Below, piece after piece: positions 14,288 to 30,331 of a stretch of 64,000 nt of DNA. Made by a program: the position numbers and the translations under genes. Source of the DNA: Elusimicrobiota bacterium (lineage in GTDB: Bacteria; Elusimicrobiota; Elusimicrobia; UBA1565); contig JBAZKS010000008.1 of the NCBI GenBank assembly GCA_041650695.1, positions 6,080-70,079 of the forward strand, in the 5' to 3' direction. Under the pieces are notes generated by a model. That model searched no databases. It had not been told where the DNA came from and saw nothing but the letters and a program-made list of their open reading frames with translations. Within the stretch, counting starts at the first letter, position 1; each line of letters opens with the position of its first letter.

Positions 14288-14303
14288 AGGTGTCCTCATT
14301 GGG

Positions 14304-14834: not shown

Positions 14835-14838
14835 CGGC

Positions 14839-15393
14839 TCACTCCAGATACTGGTACGCGACCAGTTTGAGCACCATATACATCTTCCCCTCTCCGTCCG
14901 GGGCCCCGAAATTGATGTCGCGGGCGCAGAAGAGCCGCTTCTCCAGCGCGAGCGCGGCCAGGAACTTCCCCAGGTCGTGGTACGAGGTCTGGATCTTGAG
15001 CTCGTACTTCACCTCGGCGTATCCGGCCGCCTTGGTCTCCCCCGTGTAGGAGATCCCCGAAAGCTTGATGTTGTGCTTCTTCGTCAGCGCGCTGACCGTG
15101 TCGATGACTCCGGGCAGATCCTTTTCCTTCGGCAGGGACTCGATAAGCACCTTCAGCTCCGCCTCGAGCGTCACCAGCGCCTTCTGGATCTTCTCGTAGT
15201 CGGCCTGGGCCTTCTTGGCGACCTTGATGCTCTCCTGGACCTGCGCGAACTCGGTCTTGAGCTCCGTGATCCGCTTCGAGGTGGGCATCCAGAAATACCG
15301 CACGTACGCGAAGCCGCCGCCGCCGAGGAAAAGCACGGCGAGCACCAGCGCCTGCTGCTGTTCCTTCGTCAGCTTGATGTTCATCTTCGCCAT
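14839..15393 (-). CDS. pilO: Type IV pilus assembly protein PilO
   Basis: 184 aa with a single N-terminal TM (ALVLAVLFLGGGGFAYV), a coiled coil and a PilO-like periplasmic domain. Operon position supports the call. Confidence 0.7.
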   Translation of the reverse strand: MAKMNIKLTKEQQQALVLAVLFLGGGGFAYVRYFWMPTSKRITELKTEFAQVQESIKVAKKAQADYEKIQKALVTLEAELKVLIESLPKEKDLPGVIDTVSALTKKHNIKLSGISYTGETKAAGYAEVKYELKIQTSYHDLGKFLAALALEKRLFCARDINFGAPDGEGKMYMVLKLVAYQYLE

Positions 15394-15394
15394 C

Positions 15395-15967
15395 TTACGG
15401 TGCCGCCGTGTACGTCATGTTGATCGTGAATTTGGTCGCCGTCTCGCCGATCGTCAGGATCTTGGTCTGTCCGGCGCTGAAGCGCCCGCCGCCGGTCAGC
15501 TGGACCGGTTGGGTCGAGGCGTTCACCCCCCGGAGCCATTGCGCCGCGTTTTCCGGCTTCAGGACCGCCGCGTCGGCATCCACCTGCAGCGTGGTGTTGG
15601 TCTTATTGGTCGTCTTCAGGGTCTCGAGCCACATCCCCTTGGGCATGCTCTCGCTGATATCCGTCATGAATCGGGGGTAGACCAGCCGCGAACTCAGAAG
15701 GCCCTCGATGACCTTGCGCCGCGCGACGACCTTGTCGCGCCTCGCGGTGGCCTCCGCCAGCATGCTCTTGTACTTCTCCAGCGCGGCGAGCTCCGTCTTG
15801 GCCGTGGCCACCTCGGCCTCCAGGACCACCTTGCGGTGGTGGTGCCAATAGGAGACCCCCGCGAACAAGAGGGCGGCGAAGACGCCGATCACGCCGATCT
15901 GCCCGAGGCGCTGCTTCTGCAGCTCCCGGTCCAGGATGTCCTGCGGTACCAGATTGACTCGGATCAT
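15395..15967 (-). CDS. pilN: Type IV pilus assembly protein PilN
   Basis: 190 aa. The N-terminus MIRVNLVPQD...LQKQRL is typical of PilN, followed by a single TM. ATGA overlap with pilM. Confidence 0.7.
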   Translation of the reverse strand: MIRVNLVPQDILDRELQKQRLGQIGVIGVFAALLFAGVSYWHHHRKVVLEAEVATAKTELAALEKYKSMLAEATARRDKVVARRKVIEGLLSSRLVYPRFMTDISESMPKGMWLETLKTTNKTNTTLQVDADAAVLKPENAAQWLRGVNASTQPVQLTGGGRFSAGQTKILTIGETATKFTINMTYTAAP

Positions 15968-17140
15968 TCCCAGTCCCTATTGCGCCGCAGCGCCAGCCCC
16001 ACCGCGATGCCCATGGCCGGCAGGAGTTCGGCCGGCAGGTCCGCGGGCGGATCGCCCAGGAAAGTGAAGGGATCGAGCACGGTGACCGGGACCTTGAGTT
16101 CCCCGGTCAGGAACCGGGCCAGGTTCTTCATCTTCGCGGACCCTCCCGAAAGCACGATGCGCCCGATGGACCGCTCCGGACCCTGAGAGAGGAAAAAGTC
16201 CACGGAGCGGTGCAGCTCGGCGACGAGGTCCTTGAGCACGTTCGCGACGGCCTGGGAGACCCCGAGCGCGTCCCGGTTGCCCTCCTGCAGGGCCTTCTCC
16301 TTCTCCTCGGGATCGATCATGAGGCCGTACGCCTTCTTGACCTCCTCGGCCTTGGCGTACTCGTACTGTAAAGCCTTCATCACGGCTTTGGTGAACGTGC
16401 TCCCGGAGATGAAGATGTCCCTAACGACCCGCGTGACCCCAGCCTCGATGATGGAGAGGTTCGTCACGGTATGGCCGATGTTCAGGTACAGCGCGGAGCC
16501 GACGCGCTCCTGCGGGTCGGTGGTGCCCTCGAACACGTTCTCCATCGCGAAAGAGTCGACGTCGATGATGGCGGGCTTGAGCCCCGCGGCTTCGAGGATC
16601 TCCACGCGCGTCTGGATCAGATCCTTCTTGGCCGCCACCAGCACGGTCTCCATCTTGCGCTGGCCCTCCTCCATCATCTCCGCGAGGATATGGAAGCTGA
16701 GCTGGACCTCGTTGATGTCGAACGGGATGAACGGCTCGGCCTCCGTGGAAAGCGTGGCCCGCAGTTCCTGTTTGGTCAGGAGCGGGAACTTGACGTAGCG
16801 GACGATCACGGCGTTGCCGGAGACCGCGGTCGCGGCGTTCTTGACCTGCACCCCTTTCTGGATGAGGAACGCCTTCAAGGCGTTGACCGTGGCCTGCTTG
16901 CGCTCCTCGGGAGAAGCCTCGGGAGCCGCCTCGATCGGGATATGTCCCCACATCTTGAGCTTGTTCTTGCCGCCCTCGGCCTTGATCAGGACGATCTTCA
17001 CGGCGTACGTGCCGATATCGACGCCCAGGATGTCCTTGGGGCCGCCGAAGAAAGCCCCGACCTTATCCTTCAGGCTCTTGATGTCGACGGCTTTCAGCTT
17101 TTCCTTCAGGTCCGGCATATCCCTCCGAGAACCCGCCATT
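15964..17140 (-). CDS. pilM: Type IV pilus assembly ATPase-fold protein PilM
   Basis: Actin-like ATPase fold (ILGVDIGTYAVKIVLIK ... GGSAKMKNLARFL). The track ORF begins at 17226. The start is ambiguous: 17140 (MAGSRRDMPD...) or 17118 (MPDLK, GGAGGG SD only 2 nt upstream). Confidence 0.8.
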
Positions 17141-17298
17141 AAAAAGCGCCGGCACCCGCTTTTGCGGGGCGACTCGGCGCGCACAGGTAGCTGGCCCGGG
17201 CCATCCATACGCCCAGCACAGCCCACCCAAACCTCGACACAGGTCTACGACTATGCATTTGTAACAGGATTCTACGAATTTGTCAAGGGCTTTTTTTA

Positions 17299-17337: not shown

Positions 17338-18756
17338 ATGAGCTTTGAGAAGCTGGCCGCGCCCACGAAAGCCCTTCTGTTCGATTTCGGCGGCACTCTG
17401 GATTCCGACGGTGCGGCGTGGATCGACCGCTTTATCCCCCTCTATATGGAAGGCGGGCTGTCCGCCGAACGGGAGACCCTCTGCCGGGCGTTCTACGACT
17501 CGGATGACAACCTTCCCCGGCGCTTCGCGCTCGCCGGACTCGGCCTGGAGGAAACGGTCCGCCTGCAGGTCGGGTGCGTGGCCAAGACCCTTTCCATGGA
17601 CGAACGGGCGGCCGACCGCGTGGCGGAGGCCTTCATCTCGGACTCCCGACGGCACCTCCGCCGCAACCGCCCCCTGCTCGAACGGCTGGCCGGGCGCTTC
17701 CGTCTTGGGATCGTCTCCAATTTCTACGGCAACCTCGATTCCGTGCTCGCCTCGGAGGGCTACTCCGAACTCTTCGCCGTAGTCTCGGACTCCGAGAAAG
17801 TAGGGGCCGCGAAGCCCGAGGCGCGCATCTTCCAGCACGCCCTCTCGCGCCTGGGGGCCCGGCCCGAAGAGACCTGGATGGTCGGAGACTCCGTCAAACG
17901 CGACATGCGGGGAGCCGAGGCCCTCGGCATGCCCCACGCCTGGGTGGCTGGAACGCGCCCCGAGACGGACCGCTGCTGCGCGGATGCCCCGGTGCTCCGT
18001 TCACTGATGGATATCGAGCCCCTGCTTTTAGGGAAGACGTGGGTCACGTGTGCCGGCATCATCGCCGCCGGGGAAGGCTCGCGCCTGCGCTCCTCGCATC
18101 CTAGTCTGCCGAAGCCGCTGGTGCCGGTGCGGGGCAAGCCCCTCGCGCACTGGGTGGCCCAAGGCCTGGCTTCGGCGGGAATCCGCTCCTGCACGATGAT
18201 ACTGAACAGTTCGGGACAGGCCGTGCGCGAATCCCTCTCCGGGGCTTTCCCCGATATCGCTTGGGATTTCATCGTCCGGGATACCGGCTCGTCCTGGGAG
18301 AGTTTCCGCATCGTGGCCCAGGCTCTGGCCGCGCGCAGCGAGGCGTTCCTGATGAGCACCGTGGACGCTCTCGTCCCCCCCGAGGACATCGCGCGCTTCA
18401 GCCGGGAGGCATTCCTTCTTATAGGAAGGGATCGCCCTTGCGCGGCCCTGGGCTTGACCGGCTTCGTGGACGACGAGAAGCCCCTTTGGGCGGACATGGA
18501 TCCGGCCGGCCGGATCACCGCCCTGGGACCCATGGCTCGCCGAAAGGAGACCGTGACCTCCGGGCTCTACGCATTGACGAGGGAGGCGGCGCTCTCCATG
18601 CCGCCGGTCTCGGCCCACTCCAAGCTGCGCGAATACTGGACGGCGCTGGTCCGGAACGGACGGCCGGTCCGCGGCGTCCTCCTTTCCAAAACCGTCGACG
18701 TGGACCGGCCGGAGGATGTGGCCGTCGCCGAAAAACAGACCCGCTCCTGGAGATGA
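17338..18756 (+). CDS. Fusion protein: N-terminal HAD-like hydrolase plus C-terminal MobA-like nucleotidyltransferase (inositol-1-phosphate cytidylyltransferase-like)
   Basis: HAD motif I LLFDFGGTL and motif III/IV MVGDSVKRDMRGAEALG are in residues 1-225. Residues ~232-472 carry the NTase glycine loop CAGIIAAGEGSRLRSSHPSLPKPLVPV. Confidence 0.7.
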   Translation: MSFEKLAAPTKALLFDFGGTLDSDGAAWIDRFIPLYMEGGLSAERETLCRAFYDSDDNLPRRFALAGLGLEETVRLQVGCVAKTLSMDERAADRVAEAFISDSRRHLRRNRPLLERLAGRFRLGIVSNFYGNLDSVLASEGYSELFAVVSDSEKVGAAKPEARIFQHALSRLGARPEETWMVGDSVKRDMRGAEALGMPHAWVAGTRPETDRCCADAPVLRSLMDIEPLLLGKTWVTCAGIIAAGEGSRLRSSHPSLPKPLVPVRGKPLAHWVAQGLASAGIRSCTMILNSSGQAVRESLSGAFPDIAWDFIVRDTGSSWESFRIVAQALAARSEAFLMSTVDALVPPEDIARFSREAFLLIGRDRPCAALGLTGFVDDEKPLWADMDPAGRITALGPMARRKETVTSGLYALTREAALSMPPVSAHSKLREYWTALVRNGRPVRGVLLSKTVDVDRPEDVAVAEKQTRSWR

Positions 18757-18757
18757 T

Positions 18758-19606
18758 ATGGCTCGATGCCTTGGCGTCTTCCGTGAAGTCACGAACTCCC
18801 CGAACCGCGAGACGGACGACGCCCTGATCCTGAAGGCGGTCCTGGAGCGCCTGGGATCTTTGGGGGTCGAGACGCAGGCCGTCAATCCCGAGGAGCTCGA
18901 CTCCATGGACCTGGCCGGGTGGGACCTGATCCTGCCCATGTGCGAAGCCTATCCGCGCATCAAGCGTCTGGAGTCCCTCTCCCGGTCCACGGACGCCCTC
19001 TGGGTCAACCCTCCGTCGAGCGTCCTGAGCTGCTATCGGATACAAATGCTCGACGCCTTCCGCTCGGCTAAAGAGATCCGCTTCCCGCCGACCGAGGTCC
19101 GCAAGGTGGACGAGGGGCCGGGCGACCCGCCCGTCCCATCGGACGGCGGGTGGTGGATCAAGCGCGGGGACGTGCACAACACCTGCGACCACGACGTCGT
19201 GCGCGCGCGCCGCTGGACCGACGTCGCCGGCATCCTGCAGGATTTCGCCAAGCGCGAGATCATGCATTGGCTCGTCCAGCCCCATGTCGAGGGGGACCTC
19301 GTCAAGTTCTACGGCGTGGGCCCGGAGCATTGGTTCACCTGGTTCTATCACGACCCGGTCCGCGCGAAACGCCTTCCCTTCGACGTGGATGTCCTCGCGG
19401 GACAGGCCGCCGCGGGAGCCCGGAGATTGGCCCTCGAGGTGTTCGGCGGCGACGCGATCATCGGGCCCGACCGCGTCGTCACCCTGCTCGACGTAAACTC
19501 CTGGCCCAGTTTTGCCCTGGTCCGCGGCGAAGCCGCGGTCCAGATATCCTGGCACCTGCAAAGAAGGGTGAAAACCCTTCGCGGGGCCGCTCTCCGGAGA
19601 TCCTAA
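18758..19606 (+). CDS. ATP-grasp fold protein (possible ligase/kinase; family uncertain)
   Basis: WWIKRGDVHNTCDHDVVRA (nucleotide-binding strand), LVQPHVEGDLVKFYGVG and C-terminal GGDAIIGPDRVVTLLDVNSWPSF match the ATP-grasp topology. The start is MARCLGV at 18758, 2 nt after the upstream stop. Confidence 0.45.
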   Translation: MARCLGVFREVTNSPNRETDDALILKAVLERLGSLGVETQAVNPEELDSMDLAGWDLILPMCEAYPRIKRLESLSRSTDALWVNPPSSVLSCYRIQMLDAFRSAKEIRFPPTEVRKVDEGPGDPPVPSDGGWWIKRGDVHNTCDHDVVRARRWTDVAGILQDFAKREIMHWLVQPHVEGDLVKFYGVGPEHWFTWFYHDPVRAKRLPFDVDVLAGQAAAGARRLALEVFGGDAIIGPDRVVTLLDVNSWPSFALVRGEAAVQISWHLQRRVKTLRGAALRRS

Positions 19607-20955
19607 TGAAAAACACGCTGCAGAAGACCACTGAACCCTACACCGCCGGCCCGAAGTCCCTGGAGCTATTCGAGGAAGAGCAGCGCCACATGACGCCGGG
19701 GCTCCAGCAGATCGCGACCTTCTCCAAGATCGTCCTGGAGCGCGGGCGCGGCGCCAAATTCTGGGACGTCGATGGACGCGAATACATCGATTTCGTCGCC
19801 GGGGTCTGCGTGGCGGCCATCGGGCACGGGCATCCGGAGTACGCGCGCGCCATCTCGGAGCAGGTCTCGAAGATCTCGGTCGGCAGCTTCACGACCCGCA
19901 ACCGGGTGGAGTTCGCCAAGGCCCTGGGCGAGGTCACCCCGAAGGGGGTCGACCGGCTCCAGCTCTACTCCAGCGGCGCCGAAGCCGTCGAGGCCGCGCT
20001 GCGCCTGGCCAAGAGCCACACGAAGAAATACGAGTTCATCGCCTTCTGGGGCGGCTTCCACGGCAAGACCATGGGCGTTCTGGGCATGCTGGGCGACACC
20101 TTCAAGAAGGACCTGGGACCCCTCACGCCCGGCACCTACCTCGCGCCCTTCCCCAACCCCTACCGCTGCCCCTTCGGCACGAAGGGGGAGCACGACTGCG
20201 CGAGCCACTGCCTGGATTTCCTCCGGACCATGATCCAGCGCTCCACGACCGGCGCCCTGGCCGGCATCCTCGTCGAGCCGGTGCAGGGGACGGCCGGGAA
20301 CGTCATCCCGGCGCCGGGCTTCCTGGCGGGCTTGCGGGACATCGCCCACGAGCACGGAGCCCTGCTCATCGCGGACGAGATGATCACCGGCTTCGGCCGC
20401 ACGGGCCGGTGGTTCGGCTGCAACCACGATGACGTGATCCCGGACATCATGACTCTCGGCAAGGGCCTGGGCGGCGGCTTCCCGGTGGCGGGGCTCGTGG
20501 CCCCCGCGCACATCGCCTCGGCCAAGCCCTTCGCGAACCCCTCCGGCTCCTCCTCGAGCTACGGAGGCAACCCCCTGGCCTCGGCCGCCTGCAACGCCTC
20601 GCTCAAGATCCTCAAGAACGAGAAGCTCGTGCAGAACAGCCGCGACCTCGGCGCCCATATGCTCGAGCGCCTGTCGAAGCTCAAGGACCGGTTCCCGTTC
20701 GTGGGAGACGTCCGCGGACGGGGCCTCATGATCGGCGTGGAGCTGGTCAAAGACCGCGCCACGAAAGAGCCCATGCCCCGCGAGCACTGCCGCGTCCTCT
20801 TCGACGAGGCCCTGCGCCGGGGGCTCATCACGATGGCCTATTCGCCGGTCATCCGCATCAACCCCCCGCTGAACATCACGCGCGAGGAGGCCGACCGCGG
20901 GATGGACATCCTCGAGGAGAGCCTCGCCGCGGCGCAGGAACGCTGGAAGCTCTGA
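19606..20955 (+). CDS. Class-III (fold type I) PLP-dependent aminotransferase
   Basis: 449 aa. It carries class-III hallmarks: ...FVAGVCVAAIGHGHPEY..., LIADEMITGFGRTGRWFG..., TLGKGLGGGFPV (Schiff-base Lys region). The start MKNTLQK overlaps the previous stop (TAATG). Confidence 0.85.
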   Translation: MKNTLQKTTEPYTAGPKSLELFEEEQRHMTPGLQQIATFSKIVLERGRGAKFWDVDGREYIDFVAGVCVAAIGHGHPEYARAISEQVSKISVGSFTTRNRVEFAKALGEVTPKGVDRLQLYSSGAEAVEAALRLAKSHTKKYEFIAFWGGFHGKTMGVLGMLGDTFKKDLGPLTPGTYLAPFPNPYRCPFGTKGEHDCASHCLDFLRTMIQRSTTGALAGILVEPVQGTAGNVIPAPGFLAGLRDIAHEHGALLIADEMITGFGRTGRWFGCNHDDVIPDIMTLGKGLGGGFPVAGLVAPAHIASAKPFANPSGSSSSYGGNPLASAACNASLKILKNEKLVQNSRDLGAHMLERLSKLKDRFPFVGDVRGRGLMIGVELVKDRATKEPMPREHCRVLFDEALRRGLITMAYSPVIRINPPLNITREEADRGMDILEESLAAAQERWKL

Positions 20956-21971
20956 TGCCCAAAGGCGCGATCATCGGATTCGGAGAGGTCTGCGAGCGGG
21001 CCCACATCCCGGCTCTCAAGGCGGACCGCGACTATGAGATCGTCGCGGTCTGCGACAGCTGCATCGAGCGGCGCAGCTTGGCCGCCCGCCTCCTGCCGGC
21101 GGCCAAGCTCTTCCCGAGCGCGGAGGCGATGACCTCGCATTTCTCGAAACTCAGCTCGGTCATCGACTTCGTGGACATCGCCGCGCCGCCCCACCTGCAC
21201 GCCGAAAGCTCTCTGCTCGCGCTCAAGCACGGCCTTCATGTCCTGTGCGAAAAGCCCCTCACTCTGAGCCTGAAGGAATTCGAGACGATCCGCCGCGAGG
21301 CGTCCCGGCGGCGCCGAGTGGTTTTCCCCGTGCACAACTGGAAGCACGCGCCCCTGCTCGCCAAGCTGCGCGAGCTGCTCCGGGAGCGCGCCGTGGGCGG
21401 CGTCACCCACATCGAGTGGCACGTCCTGCGCAGTCAGCCCTCGGTCACGGCCCACGCCAAGGCGAACTGGCGCACGGACCGCAGGCTCTCCGGCGGCGGC
21501 ATACTCATGGACCACGGCTGGCACGCCCTCTACCTGCTCCAGTGGCTGGTCGGCAAGAAGCCGTTGTCGGCCCACGGGGTGCTCAAGTGCTCCGGCGATA
21601 CGGACCGGGAGGCCACCTGCCTGATCGAGTTCCCCGGGTCCACCGCCCTGATGCACCTCACCTGGAACGCCCCCGGCCGCGGGCATTGGGGGGTGGTCTA
21701 CGGGAACGAAGGCCGCGTCGAGCTGCAGGACGACCGTCTGCTGGTGTACCACAGGGCCTCCGTCCCGCACACGTACTCCTTCCAGCAGCCGCTCTCGCAC
21801 GGCTCGGCCCATCCGGAGTGGTTCCGCGGGACGCTCCTGGACTTCAAGGCGGCCCTTGCGGATCCCGCCGCGGCGACGGCGGCTCTCGACGAAGCGGGAC
21901 GCTGCATCGCCCTTATCGAAGGCCTCTACGGCCGAAGCGCAGCCTTGCGGGAGGAAGCCGCCCTACCGTGA
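20955..21971 (+). CDS. Gfo/Idh/MocA-family NAD(P)-dependent oxidoreductase (inositol/sugar dehydrogenase-like)
   Basis: Rossmann N-terminus MPKGAIIGFGEVCERAHIPAL, the EKP motif LCEKPLTL, and a C-terminal alpha/beta domain. TGATG overlap with the aminotransferase. Confidence 0.8.
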   Translation: MPKGAIIGFGEVCERAHIPALKADRDYEIVAVCDSCIERRSLAARLLPAAKLFPSAEAMTSHFSKLSSVIDFVDIAAPPHLHAESSLLALKHGLHVLCEKPLTLSLKEFETIRREASRRRRVVFPVHNWKHAPLLAKLRELLRERAVGGVTHIEWHVLRSQPSVTAHAKANWRTDRRLSGGGILMDHGWHALYLLQWLVGKKPLSAHGVLKCSGDTDREATCLIEFPGSTALMHLTWNAPGRGHWGVVYGNEGRVELQDDRLLVYHRASVPHTYSFQQPLSHGSAHPEWFRGTLLDFKAALADPAAATAALDEAGRCIALIEGLYGRSAALREEAALP

Positions 21972-23719
21972 CCCGACGCCTGAGCGCCATCGTCGCCTTC
22001 GACAGCCCGGACCTCGAAGAGCTCCGCCGCCGGGACGAGCGCGCGGCCCTGGCGTCCCTGCGGCGCCGCGACGAAGTCCTGCTCGCCGGGGTGACCGGTC
22101 ACGGGGGCTCGGTCCGGCACTCCATCGGAGACGTCTCGTTCGCGTCCTTCGAGAGCGCCGTCAGCGCGGTCGAGTGCGCGCTCTGGGTCCAGCAGCGCCT
22201 GGGGGATGAAGCCCTTCCGCTGCGGGCCTGCGTCCAGATCGGGGACCTGCTCGCCAACGACCAGACGGGCTTCTCAGCCGCCTCCCGGCTCCTTCACCTC
22301 GTTCCGACCGGGAAGTCCTGCGTCACCCGCGAGGTCCGGTCCGTCGTCGAGGGCAAGGTCCGCTGCGGCTTCAGGGACCTGGGCTCGAGCCTCCTCGAGC
22401 TTTCGGAGCCGGATGACGGAGCGCCCGCGCGCGTCGGACATGGGCCCATCCGGCTGGTCGTCCCGCCGGAGCCGCCGAAACAGAAACAACCGCCGGAAGA
22501 GCCGAAAAAGGAAGAACCGCCCAGGAAACAGATGCCCCCGCCTCCCGCGGCGGCCGGGCCGCTGCAAGCCATCCTCTGGGTGGACCATCCGAACCTGATG
22601 CTCGAGCGGGTGGGCGGGATCCCGATCATCGAGCGGCAGATCATCACCCTCTCCAAGGTCGGGTTCCGCCGGATCTGGGTCTCCACGGTCAAGCCCAAGG
22701 GGAAGGGCATCGAACAGCTGCGCATCCCCGCCGGGATCGAGCTCCACTGGGTGGAGCCGACCGGCGGCGATGACGAGGTCCGCAGCCGCATCCCCGCGTG
22801 CCAGCCGCCCTACATCACCGTTTCCGCGGATTATTTCTTCCGCCCCCGGGTCCTGGGCCAGATCCTCTCCAAGAAGCACGAGGCCCCCACCGCCTACCAG
22901 GACATCTCCGGCAAGGGCGTGATCCAGGTCGTTCCGTACCGCCAGCAAGTGGTCCAACGCCACGCCAAGCTGCCCCTCCCGGACGAGGACTATGTCCTTC
23001 TGAAGACGGATGCCGCCCGGGGACCGGCGGTGCCCTGGCTCCTGCGCGACATGGTCAAGCCCCAGGACAGCTTCATGGCCAGACATTTCGACCGGCGCAT
23101 CTCCATGGCCGTGACGCGCCGCCTCGCCGAGACCTGGGTCAGCCCGAATCACATGACGGTCTTCAGCACGGCCATCGGGCTGGCGGGGGCCTCCCTGTTC
23201 GCTTCCGGGACATACCTCCATACCGTGGCCGCGGCGCTCATCGTCTGGCTCCACACGGTCCTGGACGGCTGCGACGGGGAGCTCGCGCGCCTGCGCTTCC
23301 AATCGAGCCGCTTGGGCGGCATCCTCGACTTCTGGGGAGACAATCTGGTCCATGCCGTCCTATTCGTCTCCATGGGCGTGGGTCTCGGGCGCCCGGTCTT
23401 CATCCTCCTGGGGCTGGTGGCCGCGGCCAGCGCTTTGGCCTGCGCCGCGCTCATCTACGCGCATTCCGCGCAGCGAGCCGAACGAGAGAAGGAGGGCCCC
23501 CTGTTCCGAGGGCTCGAGGACCTGGGAAAATCCTGGGCCGCGAAGATCGAGCACATCCTGTCCCAAAGGGACTTCATCTATCTGCTCGTCCTCCTGGCCT
23601 TGACCGGGCGGACCGACGTCTTCCTCTGGGCCGCGGGCATCGGGACTCCCCTTTTCCTCATTGTTTTTCTGCTGTTGCGTCCAAAAAGCTACAATGTCGA
23701 ATCTACCGGAGGAACCTGA
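21968..23719 (+). CDS. Tri-domain protein: nucleotidyl-cyclase-like N-domain, degenerate NTP-transferase-like middle domain, C-terminal CDP-alcohol phosphatidyltransferase
   Basis: GTG start overlaps the upstream stop (GTGA). The N-terminal ~115 aa (AIVAFDSPD...GGSVRHSIGDVSFASFESAVSAVECALWVQQ) resemble the class-III cyclase fold, followed by a Pro/Lys-rich linker. The middle domain ILWVDHPNLMLERVGGIPIIERQIITL is NTase-like but lacks the GxGxR loop. The C-terminus has the exact CDP-OH_P_transf motif DGCDGELARLRFQSSRLGGILDFWGDNLVH (DGx2ARx8Gx3Dx3D) and 4-6 TM helices. Confidence 0.7.
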   Translation: MTRRLSAIVAFDSPDLEELRRRDERAALASLRRRDEVLLAGVTGHGGSVRHSIGDVSFASFESAVSAVECALWVQQRLGDEALPLRACVQIGDLLANDQTGFSAASRLLHLVPTGKSCVTREVRSVVEGKVRCGFRDLGSSLLELSEPDDGAPARVGHGPIRLVVPPEPPKQKQPPEEPKKEEPPRKQMPPPPAAAGPLQAILWVDHPNLMLERVGGIPIIERQIITLSKVGFRRIWVSTVKPKGKGIEQLRIPAGIELHWVEPTGGDDEVRSRIPACQPPYITVSADYFFRPRVLGQILSKKHEAPTAYQDISGKGVIQVVPYRQQVVQRHAKLPLPDEDYVLLKTDAARGPAVPWLLRDMVKPQDSFMARHFDRRISMAVTRRLAETWVSPNHMTVFSTAIGLAGASLFASGTYLHTVAAALIVWLHTVLDGCDGELARLRFQSSRLGGILDFWGDNLVHAVLFVSMGVGLGRPVFILLGLVAAASALACAALIYAHSAQRAEREKEGPLFRGLEDLGKSWAAKIEHILSQRDFIYLLVLLALTGRTDVFLWAAGIGTPLFLIVFLLLRPKSYNVESTGGT

Positions 23720-23721
23720 AT

Positions 23722-25116
23722 ATGAGCCCTCGCCCGTTCAAAATCGAACCCTGCCGCGGAAAACTCGGCGTCCTGCTCCCCGGCATGGGCGCCATAACCA
23801 GCACCGTCATCGCGGGCATCGAGCTCCATAAGAAGGGCCTCGGCCACCTCGCGGGCTCCGTGACGCAGCTGCAGCGCATCCGCCTGGGCAAGCGCTACGA
23901 GAACCGCCGTCCCCTCATACGGGAGTTCGTGCCCCTGCAGAAGGTCGAGGACCTGGTCTTCGGCGGCTGGGACATCTTCCCGGACGACGTGTACCGCGCC
24001 GCGCTCAAGGCGGGCGTACTGCCCGAGGAGCGTCTCCGGCCGGTGGCTCAGACCCTTTCCTCCATCCGCCCCATGCCCGGGGTCTTTGACCAGGGCTACG
24101 TGAAGAACCTCCAAGGCACGCACGTAAAGACGGGCAAGAGCAAGATGCACATGGCCGAGCAGCTCATGCGCGACATCGAGACGTTCAAGAAAGAGAACGG
24201 CCTCTCGCGCGTGGTCATGGTCTGGTGCGGCTCCACCGAGATCCTCCCCGAGCGCTCCAGGGTCCACGAGGACCTCGCATCGCTCGAGCGGGGCCTCAAG
24301 GAGAGCGACCCGGCCATCCCGCCCTCCATGATTTACGCCTATGCCGCGGTCAAAATGGGCCTCCCATACGCGAACGGGGCCCCGAACCTGTCGGGCGACG
24401 TCCCGGCCATGCTCGAACTCGCGAACGCGACCGGCTCCCCGATCATCGGCAAGGACTTCAAGACCGGCCAGACCCTGATGAAGACCATCATCTCCCCCGG
24501 GCTGCACTCGCGCATGCTGGGCTTGAACGGCTGGTACTCCACCAACATCCTCGGCAACCGGGACGGGGAAGTGCTCGCGGACCCGGGCTCCTTCAAGACC
24601 AAGGAGACGAGCAAGATGTCCGTTCTCGACACGATCCTGGAGCCGGAGCTGTATCCGGACCTCTACGGGAAAGTCGTCCATAAGGTGCGCATCGACTATT
24701 ACCCGCCGCGCGGCGACGCCAAGGAAGGGTGGGACAACATCGACATCTTCGGCTGGATGGACATGCCCATGCAGATCAAGATCAACTTCCTCTGCAGGGA
24801 CTCCATCCTCGCCGCCCCCATCGTGCTGGACCTCGCGCTCTTCATGGACCTGGCAAAGCGGTCTGGCATGCGGGGCATCCAGGAGTGGCTCTCGTTCTAC
24901 TTCAAATCCCCGCAGTGCCGCGAAGACCTCCTGCCCGAGCACAACCTGTTCATCCAGCACCTCAAGCTCAAGAACACCCTGCGCATCCTCATGGGCGAGG
25001 AGGTCCTGGACCACTCGGGCTTAGACTACTACGACCCCGAACGGGGAGTCCCGATACCGGCCCCCGCCGCGGCCTCGGAGAAGAAGAAGGCCCGCGCGAA
25101 AGCCGGAAGCCGGTAG
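23722..25116 (+). CDS. ino1: myo-Inositol-1-phosphate synthase (MIPS/Ino1, bacterial-archaeal type)
   Basis: 465 aa. The N-terminus GVLLPGMGAITSTVIAGI (Rossmann), VVMVWCGSTE, NGAPNLSGD and SPGLHSRMLGLNGWYSTNILGNRDG are conserved MIPS blocks. A GGAGGA SD lies 9 nt before the ATG. Confidence 0.85.
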   Translation: MSPRPFKIEPCRGKLGVLLPGMGAITSTVIAGIELHKKGLGHLAGSVTQLQRIRLGKRYENRRPLIREFVPLQKVEDLVFGGWDIFPDDVYRAALKAGVLPEERLRPVAQTLSSIRPMPGVFDQGYVKNLQGTHVKTGKSKMHMAEQLMRDIETFKKENGLSRVVMVWCGSTEILPERSRVHEDLASLERGLKESDPAIPPSMIYAYAAVKMGLPYANGAPNLSGDVPAMLELANATGSPIIGKDFKTGQTLMKTIISPGLHSRMLGLNGWYSTNILGNRDGEVLADPGSFKTKETSKMSVLDTILEPELYPDLYGKVVHKVRIDYYPPRGDAKEGWDNIDIFGWMDMPMQIKINFLCRDSILAAPIVLDLALFMDLAKRSGMRGIQEWLSFYFKSPQCREDLLPEHNLFIQHLKLKNTLRILMGEEVLDHSGLDYYDPERGVPIPAPAAASEKKKARAKAGSR

Positions 25117-25650
25117 ATGGCGCTGGACGACGACTTCAAAGCGGTCATCATCCGCGGCGAAGACCCGGGCGAGGAATCGCTGAGCGATAGCCTCATCCGG
25201 GAGGCGTTCGGCCGGGAGAACGAAGCCCGTCTGGTGGAAACCCTCCGCCAGAGCGCGGGATTCAACTCGAAGCTCTCGCTCGTGGCGCAGAACTGGATGG
25301 GGGTCATGGGCTACGCCCTCTTCAGCCCGGTCACGGTCCAGGCCCCGACGCCCGTCAAGGCGGCCATCCTGCATCCCGTGGCCGTGGGCCCAAAATACCG
25401 GAAGCTCGGAGCCGGAGAGCGCTTCGTGCGCCACGGCGCCCAGCGCTGCAGCGCCGTGGGGATCAACCTCATATTCACGATCTCCGCTCCCCGGTTCTTC
25501 GCGCGGCTCGGGTTCGTCCCGGCGCAAAACGCAGGCTTCATCCCAGACATCCCCCTGCCCAAGGACTCCTTCCTCGCCCTGGACCTGCTGGGCACGGCTA
25601 TCGGGAAGGTCCGTGGAAAAGTCGTTTTCCCGGAGCCTTTTAAAAAATAG
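25117..25650 (+). CDS. GNAT-family N-acetyltransferase
   Basis: 177 aa. The acetyl-CoA-binding block HPVAVGPKYRKLGAGERFVRHGAQRCSAVGINLIF fits the Q/RxxGxG/A motif. TAGATG overlap with the MIPS gene. Confidence 0.6.
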   Translation: MALDDDFKAVIIRGEDPGEESLSDSLIREAFGRENEARLVETLRQSAGFNSKLSLVAQNWMGVMGYALFSPVTVQAPTPVKAAILHPVAVGPKYRKLGAGERFVRHGAQRCSAVGINLIFTISAPRFFARLGFVPAQNAGFIPDIPLPKDSFLALDLLGTAIGKVRGKVVFPEPFKK

Positions 25651-25735: not shown

Positions 25736-28369
25736 GTGACTCCATCCGGACTGCTTGGTTTTCTGCTGTTTTTTTCGGCATTTAACGCAGAAGCCGCCGT
25801 GGACTCATCGACTCCGACAACCGGACCGGTCGTGGCTCAGGTTCAGTTCTTCGGGCTCGAGCGCATCCCCGAGGCTGAGGTGCGGTCCCGGCTGTCCGTC
25901 CGCGAATGGCAGCCCTATACCCCGGAGATGAAGTCGCAGGACATCGCGGCTCTGCTGGATTCCGGCTGGTTCGTTTCCGCGTCCATCTACGAGGTGGCTC
26001 TCTCGAGCGAAGCGATGCGGGTGGACGTCCGCCTCAAGGAAGGCCCGCCGCCCATCCCGGGGAAGGCCGCGGAACCCGCGATCGCGCCGAGGGCCCCGGC
26101 CTCTTCGGACACGCCCACCCCGCCGTGGGTCGTGGGCGAGCTCGAGGTGCGGGGGAACCGCCACGTGAAGTTCAACGTGGTGCGGACCCAGATCCAGGCC
26201 AAGAAGGGGGACCTCTACACCCGGGGAGACCTGGACCGGGACATCCAGAAGGTGTACGGCCTCGGCAACTTCGAACGGGTGACGGCCGACATCAGCGAGA
26301 TCCCGGACCGCGAGATGCCGGCGCAGTTCCTCGACGTCTGCCCGTCCTCCCATCCCGTCCGGCTCGCCTTCATCGTGGAGGAACGGCCCCTGGTGCGCAA
26401 GGTCCGGTTCGAGGGGAACAAGGAGCTTTCCCGCGGGAAGGTGCGCGACGCGACCGAAACGCGGGAGCGCGACCCGCTCGATAGGGTCAAGCTCGCCTCC
26501 GACACGGAGAAGATCCTGGAGCTATACCGGAAGAAGGGCTACCACAAGGCCCAGGCGGACACGAAGGTCGAGCTGGACACGGCCGCCGCCAAGGCGGACG
26601 TCGCCTTCCTCATCCAGGAGGGGCCGCGCGCGCTCATCGCGGAGGTCCGTCTCTCCGGCGTCTCCGCGTTCAAGCCGAAGAAGATCGCCCGCCAGATGAA
26701 GACCCGCCGCAAGAAGGTCTTCTCCGAGACGCAGCTGGAGGAGGACCTCAAGAAGGTGGAGACGTTCTACAAAGACCGCGGGCACATCGACTTCCGCATC
26801 GGATCCTCCAGCGTCTCCTACTCCGAGGACCTCAAGCGCATCACCGTCGACGTCGCCGTGTTCGAAGGGCCGCGCTACCTCTTCGGCGACACGAGCTTCA
26901 GCGGCCACACGATCTACGCCTCCACGGACTTGGCCAAGGCCGTCGAATACCACCGCGGGAAGGTCTTCAGCCAGACCCGCTTCGACTACAGCGTCCAGAA
27001 CATCCAGGAGATGTTCGCGGAGAAGGGCCGCCTGCGCGCCGTGGTCCAGCACAAGAAGACGCTCAACCCCGCCACCGGCCTGACCGACGTACACTTCGAG
27101 ATCGAAGAGGGCCCCACGGTCTACGTGGAGCACGTGGATGTGGAGGGGAACAAGCAGACCAAGGCCTACGTATTCACGCGCGAGCTCGTCATCAAGCCCG
27201 GCCAGCCGTTCGCCGTCTCCAAGGTCCGCAAGAGCCAGCAGAAGATCATGAACCTGGGCTTCATCGACGACGTGCAGCTCGACGTCCAGAGCCCCTACGA
27301 CCCGAACCTCGTGGACCTCACCTTCGGCGTCACCGAGGGCAAGCCCGGCATGCTGACCGCGGGCGCCGGCTTCTCCTCGCTCGACGGGCTCATCGGGACC
27401 CTGTCTTTGCAGCACCTCAACCTCTTCGGCCGGGCCTGGCGGACCGGGGTGCAGTGGTCCTTCGGCTCCCGCGTGAACGATTTCTCCGTGTCCTGGACCA
27501 TGCCGTGGATCCGCAGCAAGCCGGTCTCCCTCGGCTTCGACGTGTTCAACACCCGGCGCATCTCCCCCTTCGAGGGATCCAACTCCGCCTTCGTCAACAA
27601 GCGCACGGGCGGCACGGTGCGCGTGGGGCCGCGCTTCCAGGACGACAAGTACCAGCTCTCGTTCAACTACACCCTGCAGAAGATCAAGGTCACCGATATC
27701 CAGGATGAATTCCTGGACACGCTCCAGCCGAGCACGAGCATCCATTCCTCGGTCGGGGCCGAATTCGCCCGGGACACCCGGGACAACATCTGGGACGCGG
27801 CCGAGGGGAGCCGCAATTCCATCGGCGCGACCCTGGCCGGCGGGCCCTTCCTCGGAGACATCCATTTCTTCAAGCCCTACATCGCGAATCAATGGCACAA
27901 GTCACTCTTCAACATCGGGGACTACCCCCTGGTCCTGAGCCTCTTCAACCGCGCCTCGTACGTGACGCAGTTCGGGGAGACCAAGCAGGTCCCGGTCTTC
28001 GAGCGCTTCTGGGTGGGCGGTCAGGACACCCTGCGCGGCTATTCCTACGCCGGCCAGGTCGGGGCGCGCAACGGCGGCAAGGTCTACGACGTGGCCAACG
28101 TGGAGCTAGGCTTCCCGCTCGCCCGGGAACGCCGCCGCACGATCGTCAAGCTCGTGGCCTTCTACGATGTCGGCGGGTCCTGGGAGAACATGAACTCCGT
28201 GGGCTGCCGCGTGGGCCCGGGCGAGAGGGACATCAAGACGGACGTCGGGTTCGGCATCCGCTTCACGACTCCGGCGTTCCCCATCCGGCTGGACTGGGGC
28301 TACGGGCTCCAGCACCGGCCGGGGGAGAACCGGACGGAGATCAACTTCAGCATAGGACCCCTGTTCTAA
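25736..28369 (+). CDS. bamA: Outer membrane protein assembly factor BamA (Omp85)
   Basis: 877 aa (GTG start). It has a signal peptide, POTRA repeats (ELEVRGNRHVKFNVVRTQIQAKKGDLYTRGDLDRDIQKVYGLGNFERV ...) and a C-terminal beta-barrel ending ...NFSIGPLF. Confidence 0.9.
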   Translation: MTPSGLLGFLLFFSAFNAEAAVDSSTPTTGPVVAQVQFFGLERIPEAEVRSRLSVREWQPYTPEMKSQDIAALLDSGWFVSASIYEVALSSEAMRVDVRLKEGPPPIPGKAAEPAIAPRAPASSDTPTPPWVVGELEVRGNRHVKFNVVRTQIQAKKGDLYTRGDLDRDIQKVYGLGNFERVTADISEIPDREMPAQFLDVCPSSHPVRLAFIVEERPLVRKVRFEGNKELSRGKVRDATETRERDPLDRVKLASDTEKILELYRKKGYHKAQADTKVELDTAAAKADVAFLIQEGPRALIAEVRLSGVSAFKPKKIARQMKTRRKKVFSETQLEEDLKKVETFYKDRGHIDFRIGSSSVSYSEDLKRITVDVAVFEGPRYLFGDTSFSGHTIYASTDLAKAVEYHRGKVFSQTRFDYSVQNIQEMFAEKGRLRAVVQHKKTLNPATGLTDVHFEIEEGPTVYVEHVDVEGNKQTKAYVFTRELVIKPGQPFAVSKVRKSQQKIMNLGFIDDVQLDVQSPYDPNLVDLTFGVTEGKPGMLTAGAGFSSLDGLIGTLSLQHLNLFGRAWRTGVQWSFGSRVNDFSVSWTMPWIRSKPVSLGFDVFNTRRISPFEGSNSAFVNKRTGGTVRVGPRFQDDKYQLSFNYTLQKIKVTDIQDEFLDTLQPSTSIHSSVGAEFARDTRDNIWDAAEGSRNSIGATLAGGPFLGDIHFFKPYIANQWHKSLFNIGDYPLVLSLFNRASYVTQFGETKQVPVFERFWVGGQDTLRGYSYAGQVGARNGGKVYDVANVELGFPLARERRRTIVKLVAFYDVGGSWENMNSVGCRVGPGERDIKTDVGFGIRFTTPAFPIRLDWGYGLQHRPGENRTEINFSIGPLF

Positions 28370-28370
28370 C

Positions 28371-29291
28371 ATGAAAAAAACGATCACCACCATGATGGCG
28401 GGCGTGCTTCTCGGCCTGGGGGCAGCCGCCTCCGCTCTCGAGGTCAGCCTCGAGGAGAACAAGGCCGAGCGCGGGAACATCGGCTACGTGGACCTCAAGA
28501 AGATCTTCCGTCTCTACCCGGAGACGCACAAGGCGAAGCAGAGCTACGCCGAGATCATCCGCCAGGCCGAGGAGCAGGTCAACCTCCGCAAGGCCGAGAT
28601 CATGGCCATGCGGGCCGAGCTCTCCAAGCTCAAGGTCGAGAAGGAGCTCGTGGAGAAGACCCCGATCCCCGCGGCGGCTCCCACGCCGCCGGCGGAACCG
28701 GCCATATCGACCCCGACCGTACAGGTCTCGACCCCTGCGGTGGTCGAAGTCTCCACGGACTCCCGCCCCCAGCTCGGGCAGCTCCCCGGCATGGGCCCGA
28801 TGCCCGCCGACGTGGCGCAGGACACCGCGCCGGTCGTTTCTTCAGACACGGCTCCGGTCCAAGGCGCCTCTCCCACGGACGCCCCCCTGGTCATCGACAT
28901 CCCGGGGGTGACGGAATCCCCCATCGTGGTGGACCCGGGAGCGGCCGCGGTCTCCACGCCGACCGCGGCCGTGGACCCCGGCGCGGAAGCCCTCGCGGCC
29001 CGGGAGAAGCGCATGAAGGAGCTCGACGACTCCATCGCTGCCAAACAGGACGAAATCGCCGAAAAGGAGAAGCTCTTCGACTCCTACCAGGCGCAGGTCG
29101 AGAAGGACCTCATCGACATCGAGAGCCGCCGCGCGGAGATCCTGCTCGGCAAGATCTACGACGCCGTCCGGGAGGTCGCCCGCGAGAACGGCGTGAGCGT
29201 GGTCGTGGATAAGGGCCAGATCCTCTTCGGCCAGAACTCGGTGGACCTGACCGACAGGGTGGTCAAGAAGCTCAAGGAGACCTCGCTATGA
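28371..29291 (+). CDS. skp: Periplasmic chaperone Skp/OmpH with a long low-complexity Pro/Ala/Thr insertion
   Basis: Signal peptide plus the OmpH coiled-coil N-part, and the C-terminal [43 protein letters not shown] typical of Skp. It sits in the conserved position between bamA and lpxD. Confidence 0.7.
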
Positions 29292-30331
29292 GGATCACCC
29301 TGGACGAGATCGCGCGGCTGACCCGCGCCCGCCTCGAGGGCGACCCGAACGCCGTCATCCACGACGCGTCCTCCCTGGCGGATTCCGGGCCGACCGATAT
29401 CGCGTTCCTGGAGAACCGCAAGTACGCGGGCCAGCTGCCCACCTGCCGGGCCGGCGCCGTCTTCCTTTCCCCCGCCGACCGCGACCTCCCGGGAGGGCCT
29501 TCGAACCGGCTCTACACGGACCAGCCCCGGCTGGCCTACGCCCAGGTGCTCGAGCGCATCTACGCGGAGAAGTGGAAGCCCCTCACGCCGGCCCTGAGCC
29601 CGAAGGCCGACATCCACTTCGAGGCGCGCCTCGGCAAGGATGTGGACGTGGGCCCGTACACCGTGATCCGAGGCCGGACCATCATCGGCGACGGGACGCG
29701 CATCGGGGCGCAGTGCTACCTCGGCTACAACGTGCGCATCGGCAAAGACTGCCTCATCCACCCGCGGGTCGTCATCCAGGACTACTGCACCATCGGCGAC
29801 CGCGTCATCCTGCACCCCGGCGTGGTCCTCGGTTCCGACGGCTTCGGCTATTGGACGGACCCCAAGACGGGCTGCCACCGGAAGATCCCCCAGGTGGGCC
29901 GCGTGGTCCTCGAGGACGACGTGGAGCTCGGCGCCAACGTCACCATCGACCGCGCCACGGCCGGCGACACCCGCATCGGCGCCGGGACGAAGATCGACAA
30001 CCTGGTCCAGATCGGGCACAACGTGCGCATCGGCCCGAACGGCATCCTCGTGTCCCAGGTGGGCATCGCCGGCTCGACAGAGGTCGGCAGGCAGGTGACC
30101 CTCGCGGGCCAGGTGGGCGTCGCCGGGCATCTGAAGATCGGCGACCGCGCCGTGGTCACGGCCCAGAGCGGAGTCATGAGCGACATCGACCCCGGAGCCG
30201 TGGTCTTCGGATCTCCGACGCGCCCGCACCGGGAGGCCATGAAGCTCCAGGCCCTGCTCAACCGCCTTCCGGAGATGTACGAGACGCTCAAGCGCCTGAC
30301 GAAGAAAGAGGCCAGTCATGCGAAAAAATAG
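29288..30331 (+). CDS. lpxD: UDP-3-O-(3-hydroxyacyl)glucosamine N-acyltransferase LpxD
   Basis: 347 aa. LpxD N-domain (ITLDEIARL...) and left-handed beta-helix hexapeptide repeats ([20 protein letters not shown]...). Confidence 0.9.

Follow-up and report, generated by a model that had tools for sequence, protein, structure and literature searches.

An open reading frame (ORF) at 21968..23719 (+ strand) of the window, that is, the whole 64,000-nucleotide stretch of Elusimicrobiota DNA analysed here, encodes a tri-domain protein of 583 aa in which a pseudo-cyclase, a linker and a pseudo-NTase precede a CDP-alcohol phosphotransferase (CDP-AP). The target protein thus appears to be two pseudo-enzyme domains carried on one active enzyme, since its cyclase homology domain (CHD) is degenerate too, with three of six catalytic residues kept. 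The explanation to which we give slightly better than even credence is a dimeric membrane CDP-AP of the AF2299/DIPPS subfamily in which only the six-transmembrane (6-TM) domain would be catalytic, the NTase-like domain would be a relic and the CHD would be a regulatory module. In the reaction, the 6-TM domain would take the substituted phosphate of a soluble, CDP-activated cyclitol, pass it to an acceptor hydroxyl and release CMP. The donor may be CDP-inositol or, more speculatively, CDP-inosamine, and the operon's own stand-alone NTase would make it.

The ORF starts with a GTG at 21968 that shares bases with the TGA ending the upstream Gfo/Idh/MocA gene (GTGA); its stop codon is at 23717-23719. 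The protein is 100% identical to a 583-aa NCBI protein from an Elusimicrobiota MAG, and its AF2 model has a mean pLDDT of 83.7. A gene-call or frameshift artefact was ruled out: the reading frame is unbroken, and seven further sequences from independent assemblies have the same architecture. All domain matches of the ORF and of its operon were far beyond chance. The tri-domain layout had been proposed in a sequence-only reading, and domain annotation and structure prediction upheld all of its elements; the N-terminal domain did not align to an unrelated fold, nor the middle domain to an ordinary active NTase.

The membrane domain and its NTase-like partner

The C-terminal part (aa 366-583, 23063..23716, + strand) comprises a juxtamembrane helix and the 6-TM CDP-AP catalytic domain, as recognised by PF01066, the AF2299 profile match and the JM1/DGCDGE motifs. 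It carries the signature D433xxD436G437xxA440R441(x8)G450xxxD454xxxD458 (sequence DGCDGELARLRFQSSRLGGILDFWGD; aa 433-458, 23264..23341, + strand). The motif had earlier been called a textbook one, and it proved perfect: the eight residues D433, D436, G437, A440, R441, G450, D454 and D458 have canonical spacing and were all invariant in 77 homologues. The PF01066 score of the target protein (45.7 bits, cut-off 22) and the 6-TM fold place it in class I of the CDP-APs. From its sequence, the domain appears to be an intact, ordinary member of a structurally characterised family, and because the catalytic core is of this kind, the domain annotation alone would be incremental.

AF2299 was the best sequence match of the target protein (profile search, E = 5.7e-33) as well as a top structural match. 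The best solved relatives of the CDP-AP domain were AF2299 and AfIPCT-DIPPS, and the protein was nearer to AF2299 (118 bits) than to IPCT-DIPPS (66 bits). The NTase-fold domain that marks the AF2299/DIPPS subfamily lies immediately N-terminal to the juxtamembrane helix, and the consensus motifs of the subfamily, DG[FW]xAR..[ND]R.[IV]S, PNQ[MI]T and DGCDGE[IL]AR, are all present. HMMER alignments to 4o6m and 4mnd were compared with those to 6wm5 and 5d92; the JM1 motif DGFMARHFDR.IS and the motifs PNQMT and LDGCDGELAR were common to the target, AF2299 and DIPPS, and different in the PIP synthases. This likeness fits a soluble CDP-alcohol donor, which has been described for AF2299 and DIPPS (PMC4634129). 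The likely role of the domain is phospho-(amino)cyclitol transfer from such a donor.

The cytidylyltransferase-like (NTase-fold) domain at aa 197-365 (22556..23062, + strand) is homologous to the AF2299 cytosolic domain. It had been described as an NTase fold that lacks the GxGxR(L) loop, and both alignment and structure agree with this: the loop reads DHPNLM, about 10 aa shorter than GEGSRLRSSHPSLPKP of the operon's NTase, and PF12804 matched the domain at an E-value of only 0.034. The invariant polar residues H207, R214, E222, R223, S286, D288, R292 and D312 are kept in the domain. Because so many conserved polar residues are kept, it may still bind a ligand, and a catalytic or neo-functional role may be possible. 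In our favoured explanation, the domain would be a non-catalytic relic of an IPCT-type cytidylyltransferase that sits beneath the TM domain and covers part of the substrate pocket, as in AF2299, whose crystal structure shows a "cytidylyltransferase-like" cytosolic domain (PMC4634129).

Two-domain homologues with a degenerate NTase-like domain and a CDP-AP domain number in the hundreds and occur commonly, in Elusimicrobiota as in other phyla; the pair is the already known AF2299/IPCT-DIPPS architecture. The fusion of an IPCT/DIPPS-like module to a cyclase had been regarded as unusual. This was right for the CHD fusion, which is rare and is the only unusual part of the architecture, but not for the NTase-like/CDP-AP pair, which is not new and is nearer to AF2299.

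The seven-gene cassette and its possible product

The operon lies on the + strand and begins with a HAD phosphatase fused to an NTP_transf_3 nucleotidyltransferase (17338..18756; NTase at aa 233-472). The AAGEGSRL loop of the latter confirms the earlier view that the intact NTase sits in this first gene; in relatives, HAD and NTase are two separate genes. Between this gene and the target ORF are an ITPK-like ATP-grasp protein that is "hypothetical" in databases (18758..19606; AF2 pLDDT 91.8), a class III aminotransferase (19606..20955; PF00202, E = 6e-107) and a Gfo/Idh/MocA oxidoreductase with weak similarity to iolG and sugar 3-dehydrogenases (20955..21971). A myo-inositol-1-phosphate synthase (MIPS; 23722..25116; PF07994 and PF01658) follows with its ATG 2 nt after the target's stop, and then a GNAT acetyltransferase (25117..25650), which only some of the related loci have. 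Translational coupling extends to all of the operon genes, whose gaps or overlaps never exceed 4 nt. For the ATP-grasp protein, Foldseek gave Ddl, LysX and ITPK1 all at about 1e-12, which does not separate a ligase from a kinase. Sequence profiles lean to ITPK: the best PDB match was ITPK4 (E = 6e-4), and 24 of 58 orthologues weakly matched PF05770.

The HAD, NTase, ITPK-like ATP-grasp, class III aminotransferase, Gfo/Idh/MocA, CDP-AP and MIPS genes, which GNAT follows here, co-occur as a seven-gene set; this holds for nearly every related locus whose flanks are long enough, across several phyla. The members are mostly annotated just as "hypothetical" or "phosphatidylglycerophosphate synthase". 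The make-up of this tightly coupled and conserved cassette predicts an aminated inositol phosphodiester that is so far undescribed. The route may lead from inositol through inosose, inosamine, inosamine-phosphate and CDP-inosamine to a lipid or a soluble alcohol. The product could be a "phosphatidyl-inosamine"-type head group or a solute, and it may be made across Elusimicrobiota, Acidobacteriota, Rokubacteria, Verrucomicrobiae and Nitrospira. It is a tentative proposal, well short of an even chance, that the cassette makes an undescribed aminocyclitol phosphodiester and that its terminal enzyme in one Elusimicrobiota clade captured a class III cyclase, which is here a pseudo-enzyme allosteric module. 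The literature searched held nothing relevant on Elusimicrobia and inositol, cyclase and CDP-alcohol, or scyllo-inosamine and cytidylyltransferase. The function of the cassette would help to assign a physiological reaction to AF2299.

The target may instead be a lipid-forming synthase, which we consider possible but unlikely. It would be either of the PIP-synthase type (CDP-diacylglycerol plus inositol phosphate) or Kennedy-like (CDP-inositol plus diacylglycerol or ceramide), and it would yield a phospholipid of the cell envelope that contains inositol or inosamine. The set of MIPS, NTase, CDP-AP and HAD is that of the putative alternative inositol-lipid cluster of Bacteroides vulgatus (PMC9246714), the cassette is syntenic with bamA-skp-lpxD-lpxC-fabZ-lpxA in Elusimicrobiota, and a DIP-like thermoprotectant would be unexpected in mesophilic groundwater organisms. 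There were also weak NCBIfam matches to PIP synthase and archaetidylinositol-phosphate synthase; however, these scored 43.3 and 49.5 bits against cut-offs of 170 and 180. The JM1/TM2 motifs fit the soluble-donor enzymes AF2299 and DIPPS and not the PIP synthases, and together with the low PIP synthase score they argue against a CDP-diacylglycerol donor. The sequence alignments for the PIP-synthase acceptor arginines R153 and R191 end at TM4. Moreover, the target has just 6 TM helices, whereas CDP-APs with lipid acceptors usually have three to four extra helices (PMC4634129). A Kennedy-like route, in which the donor is soluble and the acceptor is a lipid, may still apply and overlaps with our favoured explanation. 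AF2299 was reported not to process lipids (PMC4634129), at variance with the statement that it is "probably involved in PI-phosphate synthesis" (PMC8633023).

The cyclase homology domain and its fusion

The CHD occupies aa 1-150 (21968..22417, + strand) and is joined to the rest of the protein by a disordered Pro/Lys/Glu-rich linker at aa 151-196 (22418..22555, + strand). The Pro/Lys-rich stretch noticed earlier, PPEPPKQKQPPEEPKKEEPPRKQMPPPP, is at aa 166-193, and the AF2 model is disordered there, with pLDDT < 50 for aa 153-195. The N-terminal domain had been likened to class III nucleotidyl cyclases, and its homology to them is clear. Detection required an orthologue profile; the N-domain alone gave no Pfam match at E ≤ 10. 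When the N-domain profile was used in a word-indexed homologue search, only six unrelated short cyclases came up and the orthologues were missed; the fusion homologues were found by an exhaustive representative search. A GGDEF diguanylate cyclase was ruled out, as neither a GG[DE]EF motif nor a best structural match to GGDEF domains was found.

The metal-binding aspartates D12 and D55 and the arginine R107 are retained in the CHD. The substrate Lys is replaced by H51, the substrate Asp by T100 and the transition-state Asn by S103 beside a 4-aa deletion, and SPDLE stands in place of the phosphate-binding GFT segment that follows the first Asp. Three of the six canonical catalytic residues are therefore present in the target, compared with all six in the relative P0140, which has a clear PF00211 match. 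None of the six positions is conserved across the eight fusion proteins. These losses mark the CHD of the target as catalytically degenerate, as judged by alignment, although D12, D55 and R107 could support nucleotide or metal binding or weak catalysis.

The eight CHD-CDP-AP fusion sequences that were found form one clade in the core-domain tree. P0009 lies inside this clade and has no CHD, which indicates one secondary loss. In a neighbour-joining tree of 203 cyclase domains, the degenerate copies, with their long branches, prevented the resolution of a fusion-specific clade; the fusion clade was deduced from nearest-neighbour identities and the core-domain tree. With all six cyclase residues intact in P0140, the fusion probably arose a single time, in one sub-clade of Elusimicrobiota, from an active cyclase (probably an adenylyl cyclase) that decayed afterwards. 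In the lineage of the target, the CHD has lost catalytic residues and is tethered by a flexible stretch of about 45 aa. It is most likely a dimerising and/or nucleotide-sensing regulatory module and not a producer of cNMP. CDP-APs of the AF2299/DIPPS type are obligate homodimers (PMC4634129; PMC8633023), so two CHDs would be brought together, and their dimerisation would follow from this; the AF2 model is a monomer and has no bearing on CHD dimerisation or docking.

The CHD is under purifying selection. Its dN/dS (omega) was 0.49 (95% bootstrap interval 0.27-0.90), a crude NG86 estimate from a single pair in a 67% GC genome, which means only moderate constraint. The CHD might be a functionless relic, folded and drifting after cyclase activity was lost and with no role in the enzyme. 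This is a rather improbable reading, although the omega is about three times that of the catalytic domain, the catalytic residues were lost in differing patterns across lineages, P0009 has dispensed with the CHD, and only a disordered linker attaches it. However, omega is below 1, and 1.5% of bootstraps were ≥ 1. The CHD evolves at the rate of the NTase-like domain: its identity across seven orthologues is 29-42%, as for the phylum-wide NTase-like domain. Ten structural-core positions are invariant, and the fold is predicted confidently (pLDDT 83-92 over most of the domain, with dips at the N-terminus and the deletion loop). Furthermore, a useless extension of 190 aa would be expected to be deleted quickly.

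It is more doubtful still that the CHD is an active nucleotidyl cyclase, which would make the target a bifunctional signalling and biosynthetic enzyme. A Thr at the substrate-Asp position is found in some active adenylyl cyclases, such as CyaC, so T100 would be compatible with activity, as would the retained metal-binding residues and Arg and the intact state of P0140. The exchange of the substrate Lys for His, the missing transition-state Asn with its four deleted loop residues, the altered phosphate-binding segment, the lack of a Pfam match and the low model confidence at the deletion site (aa 94-96) all speak against it.

Comparison with known systems

AF2299 of Archaeoglobus fulgidus (PDB 4o6m, 4o6n and 4q7c) has the same two-domain core, in which a small NTase-like domain without the NTP loop is followed by JM1 and 6 TM helices. 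In the NTase-like domain, V.NHE...GL.LRER...L.RAGF of AF2299 aligned with WVDHPNLMLERVGGIPIIERQIITLSKVGF. Residue-level similarity is strong from JM1 to TM3, and DGCDGE(I/L)AR is common to both. AF2299 differs in being archaeal and in having neither a cyclase domain nor a linker, and its cytosolic domain is about 135 aa long compared with about 170 aa in the target.

In IPCT/DIPPS (AF0263, PDB 4mnd), the IPCT is catalytically intact with a Gly-rich loop, whereas at the target locus the NTase activity is predicted to come from a separate gene. The least probable explanation, that the target is a DIPP synthase orthologue making di-myo-inositol phosphate as a compatible solute, is at odds with the NCBIfam equivalog for bifunctional IPCT/DIPPS (NF041135), which matched at 70.8 bits over aa 358-556 only against a cut-off of 580, with the greater nearness to AF2299, and with the fact that DIP synthesis needs no dehydrogenase, aminotransferase or ATP-grasp protein, yet these co-occur universally here. 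For the putative Bacteroides vulgatus/Prevotella alternative inositol-lipid cluster, a route via CDP-inositol has been proposed (Heaver et al. 2022, PMC9246714). The cluster has neither a cyclase fusion nor genes for an ATP-grasp protein, a class III aminotransferase or a Gfo/Idh/MocA protein.

The class III cyclase domains of Rv1900c/LipJ (CHD, 1ybt), the Silicibacter cyclase/hydrolase (3mr7) and the P. aeruginosa class III AC-like ATP-binding protein (6yii) are fused to enzymes or are non-catalytic nucleotide binders, but none has a CDP-AP, or any other biosynthetic enzyme embedded in the membrane, as its fusion partner. The combination of cyclase and CDP-AP domains was found nowhere in the literature searched. 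Rv1625c and other 6TM-anchored cyclases have the reverse order, the membrane domain of the target being C-terminal. In this fusion, the 6-TM "anchor" of a class III cyclase would itself be an enzyme; if this is true, the 6-TM biosynthetic enzyme in P0140-like relatives would be the membrane anchor and possibly the sensor of an active adenylyl cyclase. The fusion series forms a gradient from the apparently active P0140 to several pseudo-cyclases that degenerated independently on a common enzyme scaffold, and would be a natural experiment on a signalling domain turning into a regulatory pseudo-enzyme.

The tri-domain protein and its core

The target ORF (21968-23719, forward strand) starts with GTG at 21968, in a GTGA overlap with the stop codon (TGA) of the preceding gene, and ends with TGA at 23717-23719. 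Its product of 583 aa is 100% identical to an NCBI Elusimicrobiota MAG protein annotated as "CDP-alcohol phosphatidyltransferase family protein". The tri-domain ORF of the sequence-only reading is confirmed, and the interpretation given there holds as a whole. GC content across the whole window is 63-72%.

The C-terminal CDP-alcohol phosphotransferase (CDP-AP) domain gave the sole Pfam match in the target (PF01066, aa 390-531; score 45.7 bits, cut-off 22). The signature motif first read by eye is exact (D433-x2-D-G-x2-A-R-x8-G-x3-D-x3-D458), and 77 aligned homologues show no variation at any of its eight residues. The profile of these homologues matched the archaeal structures AF2299 (4o6m, E 5.7e-33) and AfIPCT-DIPPS (4mnd, 2.8e-17), and PIP synthases at E 1e-9 to 1e-12. 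Residue-level alignments showed that the target family, AF2299 and DIPPS have in common a juxtamembrane motif (DGFMARHFDRhISLAVSR, DGWIAREINRKVSLRISR and DGFISRKINRKISTRISA, respectively), PNQ(M/I)T and LDGCDGE(L/I)AR, whereas PIP synthases differ at these motifs (PFLSRAAFARITL; FDMLDGAMAR). On the physiological reaction of AF2299 the literature differs: according to PMC4634129 no lipids are processed, whereas PMC8633023 suggests a possible part in PI-phosphate synthesis.

The NTase-like middle domain is barely recognisable from sequence (PF12804 at E 0.034). Compared with the operon's own NTase family by hhalign, it aligned in register at E 0.005, and in the segment leading from strand 1 to the 'L.P..G.P' element DHPNLM replaces the GEGSRLRSSHPSLPKP of the real NTase, which agrees with the earlier claim that the Gly-rich NTP loop is missing. 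AF2299 has the same degenerate segment (VKNHEIYGEKLLGLTLRERIEKTLQRAGF against WVDHPNLMLERVGGIPIIERQIITLSKVGF in the profile alignment), and in a Thermoanaerobaculia homologue the pseudo-NTase domain is even shorter. Since many polar residues of the middle domain are invariant or near-invariant in the 77-homologue alignment, ligand binding is plausible. The core of pseudo-NTase and CDP-AP is not new: AF2299 already has it.

The cyclase homology domain and its fusion

Searched alone against Pfam, the N-terminal domain of the target gave no match. Four full-length orthologues were recovered (P0002, P0003, P0005, P0008), of which P0005 matches PF00211 (E 1.7e-12). The resulting five-sequence profile reached the cyclases 3mr7 at 1.7e-36 and Ma1120 at 8e-14, and also CyaB, and Rv1900c at 1e-11, so the domain had been rightly likened to class III cyclases (cyclase homology domain, CHD).

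We read six canonical catalytic positions by alignment to 3mr7, in the order metal Asp 1, substrate Lys, metal Asp 2, substrate Asp, transition-state Asn and transition-state Arg. All six are canonical in 3mr7 and in the fusion protein P0140 (D, K, D, D, N, R; 6/6 each). The target retains 3/6 (D12, H51, D55, T100, S103 beside a 4-aa deletion, R107), as do P0002 (D, D, D, T, S beside the same deletion, R), P0005 (D, L, D, N, T, R) and the L008 protein (D, K, D, N, H, S). P0008 retains 1/6 (E, K, N, S, L, E) and P0003 0/6 (E, E, H, Q, E, L). In the N-terminally truncated P0173, metal Asp 1 lies outside the sequence and the other positions read N, D, D, N, R (at least 4/5). The target domain is a cyclase homologue from which catalytic residues have been lost, and the pattern of loss differs between lineages. 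P0140 (L006 10001-12013, JGI 3300050571) lies at the same syntenic locus and keeps the K/D pair among its six adenylyl-cyclase residues; we regard it as a candidate for an active adenylyl cyclase with a CDP-AP enzyme as anchor.

Between the target and P0002, dN/dS (NG86, bootstrap range) was 0.49 (0.27-0.90) for the CHD, 0.54 (0.31-0.94) for the NTase-like domain and 0.17 (0.10-0.27) for CDP-AP. Across seven orthologues, CHD identity (0.29-0.42) moved in step with that of the NTase-like domain (0.33-0.44). Together these figures indicate that the CHD is maintained, if loosely.

CDP-APs are obligate dimers (PMC4634129; PMC8633023), and therefore two tethered CHDs would be close enough for the usual head-to-tail dimer. 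Such a pair could be an active adenylyl cyclase in P0140; in the target, a pseudo-enzyme that binds nucleotides or stabilises the dimer is more likely, with PDB 6yii as a precedent for an ATP-binding protein of cyclase-like type.

In an exhaustive profile search, 63,068 CHD relatives emerged from 1.84 billion representatives; of the 150 best, only P0001, P0003, P0005, P0140 and P0173 also have the CDP-AP motif. A scan of 185,579 species-representative genomes confirmed at least 552 relatives of the core, and among the best-matching 80 of these loci only L008 is tri-domain (1/80). The fusion is indeed unusual in its cyclase part, a new and rare variant. All eight fusion proteins fall in one clade of the NJ tree of the core (123 sequences). 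A single member of this clade, P0009, is not a fusion protein. Its gene (L088 882-2108) comes directly after the Gfo/Idh/MocA gene, which shows that the two-domain form is genuine, and its nested position implies that the cyclase domain was lost secondarily. The nearest neighbours of the fusion CHDs are one another, and the nearest outsiders are CHD-TPR proteins. Taken together, these sequence comparisons support a history in which the fusion arose once and was lost at least once, and in which catalytic residues decayed repeatedly.

The operon and a possible pathway

The operon (17338-25650) consists of genes coupled throughout by gaps or overlaps of ≤4 nt, and no terminator above chance was detected. 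Its first gene (17338-18756, forward strand) has an intact AAGEGSRL loop, as expected from the reading of an intact NTase fused to a HAD hydrolase. HAD and NTase form one 472-aa ORF here, but relatives have them as two neighbouring genes (L001 5694-6841; L006 5412-6817); the single ORF either arose in this lineage through loss of a stop codon or reflects an assembly error. ATP-grasp (18758-19606, forward strand), class III aminotransferase (19606-20955) and Gfo/Idh/MocA (20955-21971) genes precede the target, and myo-inositol-1-phosphate synthase (MIPS, 23722-25116) and GNAT (25117-25650) genes follow it. At the junction of the two genes (23708-23724), the MIPS ATG at 23722 is only 2 nt past the target stop, with the RBS GGAGGAA within the target's final codons; the long upstream extension in the mechanically listed ORF 22798-25116 is spurious.

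The ATP-grasp protein is labelled "hypothetical", and no Pfam domain is given in any database record examined. Its model (pLDDT 91.8) matches the folds of Ddl, LysX and ITPK1, its profile has ITPK4 as top PDB match (E 6e-4), and 24/58 orthologues weakly match PF05770. These weak sequence affinities point to the inositol-phosphate kinases ITPK1/ITPK4. The protein is conserved at 55-68% identity, above CDP-AP itself.

Using tblastn of all operon proteins against 88 related loci (L001-L088), we found HAD, NTase, ATP-grasp, aminotransferase, Gfo/Idh/MocA, CDP-AP and MIPS together wherever the flank suffices, with GNAT in a subset only. Beyond Elusimicrobiota, the hosts are Thermoanaerobaculia and other Acidobacteriota, Rokubacteria, Verrucomicrobiae, Nitrospira, Methylomirabilia and Alphaproteobacteria MAGs. 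We found no literature on this seven-gene cassette, which makes up a worthwhile, uncharacterised pathway. The pilM and bamA flanks are Elusimicrobiota-specific. In that phylum the cassette always lies between pilQ-pilO-pilN-pilM (12230-17226, reverse strand) and bamA-skp-lpxD(-lpxC-fabZ-lpxA) (25736-31200, forward strand), a synteny that hints at an envelope-related role.

The gene set would allow a linear route that calls on each enzyme a single time. MIPS would convert glucose-6-P to inositol-P, HAD would release inositol, Gfo/Idh/MocA would yield inosose and the aminotransferase inosamine; the ITPK-like kinase would then form inosamine-P, the NTase CDP-inosamine, and CDP-AP a phosphodiester product, with optional N-acetylation by GNAT. 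In their chemistry, the first four of these steps would resemble the opening of streptidine biosynthesis. A simpler alternative is that CDP-inositol is the donor and tailoring comes later. As for the CDP-AP acceptor, the 6-TM architecture and the kinship with AF2299/DIPPS favour a soluble one (PMC4634129), and a Bacteroides precedent (PMC9246714) together with the synteny with envelope genes favours a lipid.

Two other loci in the window were recorded. An 814-aa ORF (9294-11741, reverse strand) has no Pfam match and its region is the window's GC maximum (72%) and strongest AT skew (+0.33); with a YfhO-like membrane protein and a GT4 glycosyltransferase as neighbours, the locus may be concerned with the envelope or with glycans. 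At 39471-43202 (reverse strand), a 1242-aa fusion joins CheB methylesterase, CheR methyltransferase, PAS domains and a HisKA/HATPase histidine kinase.
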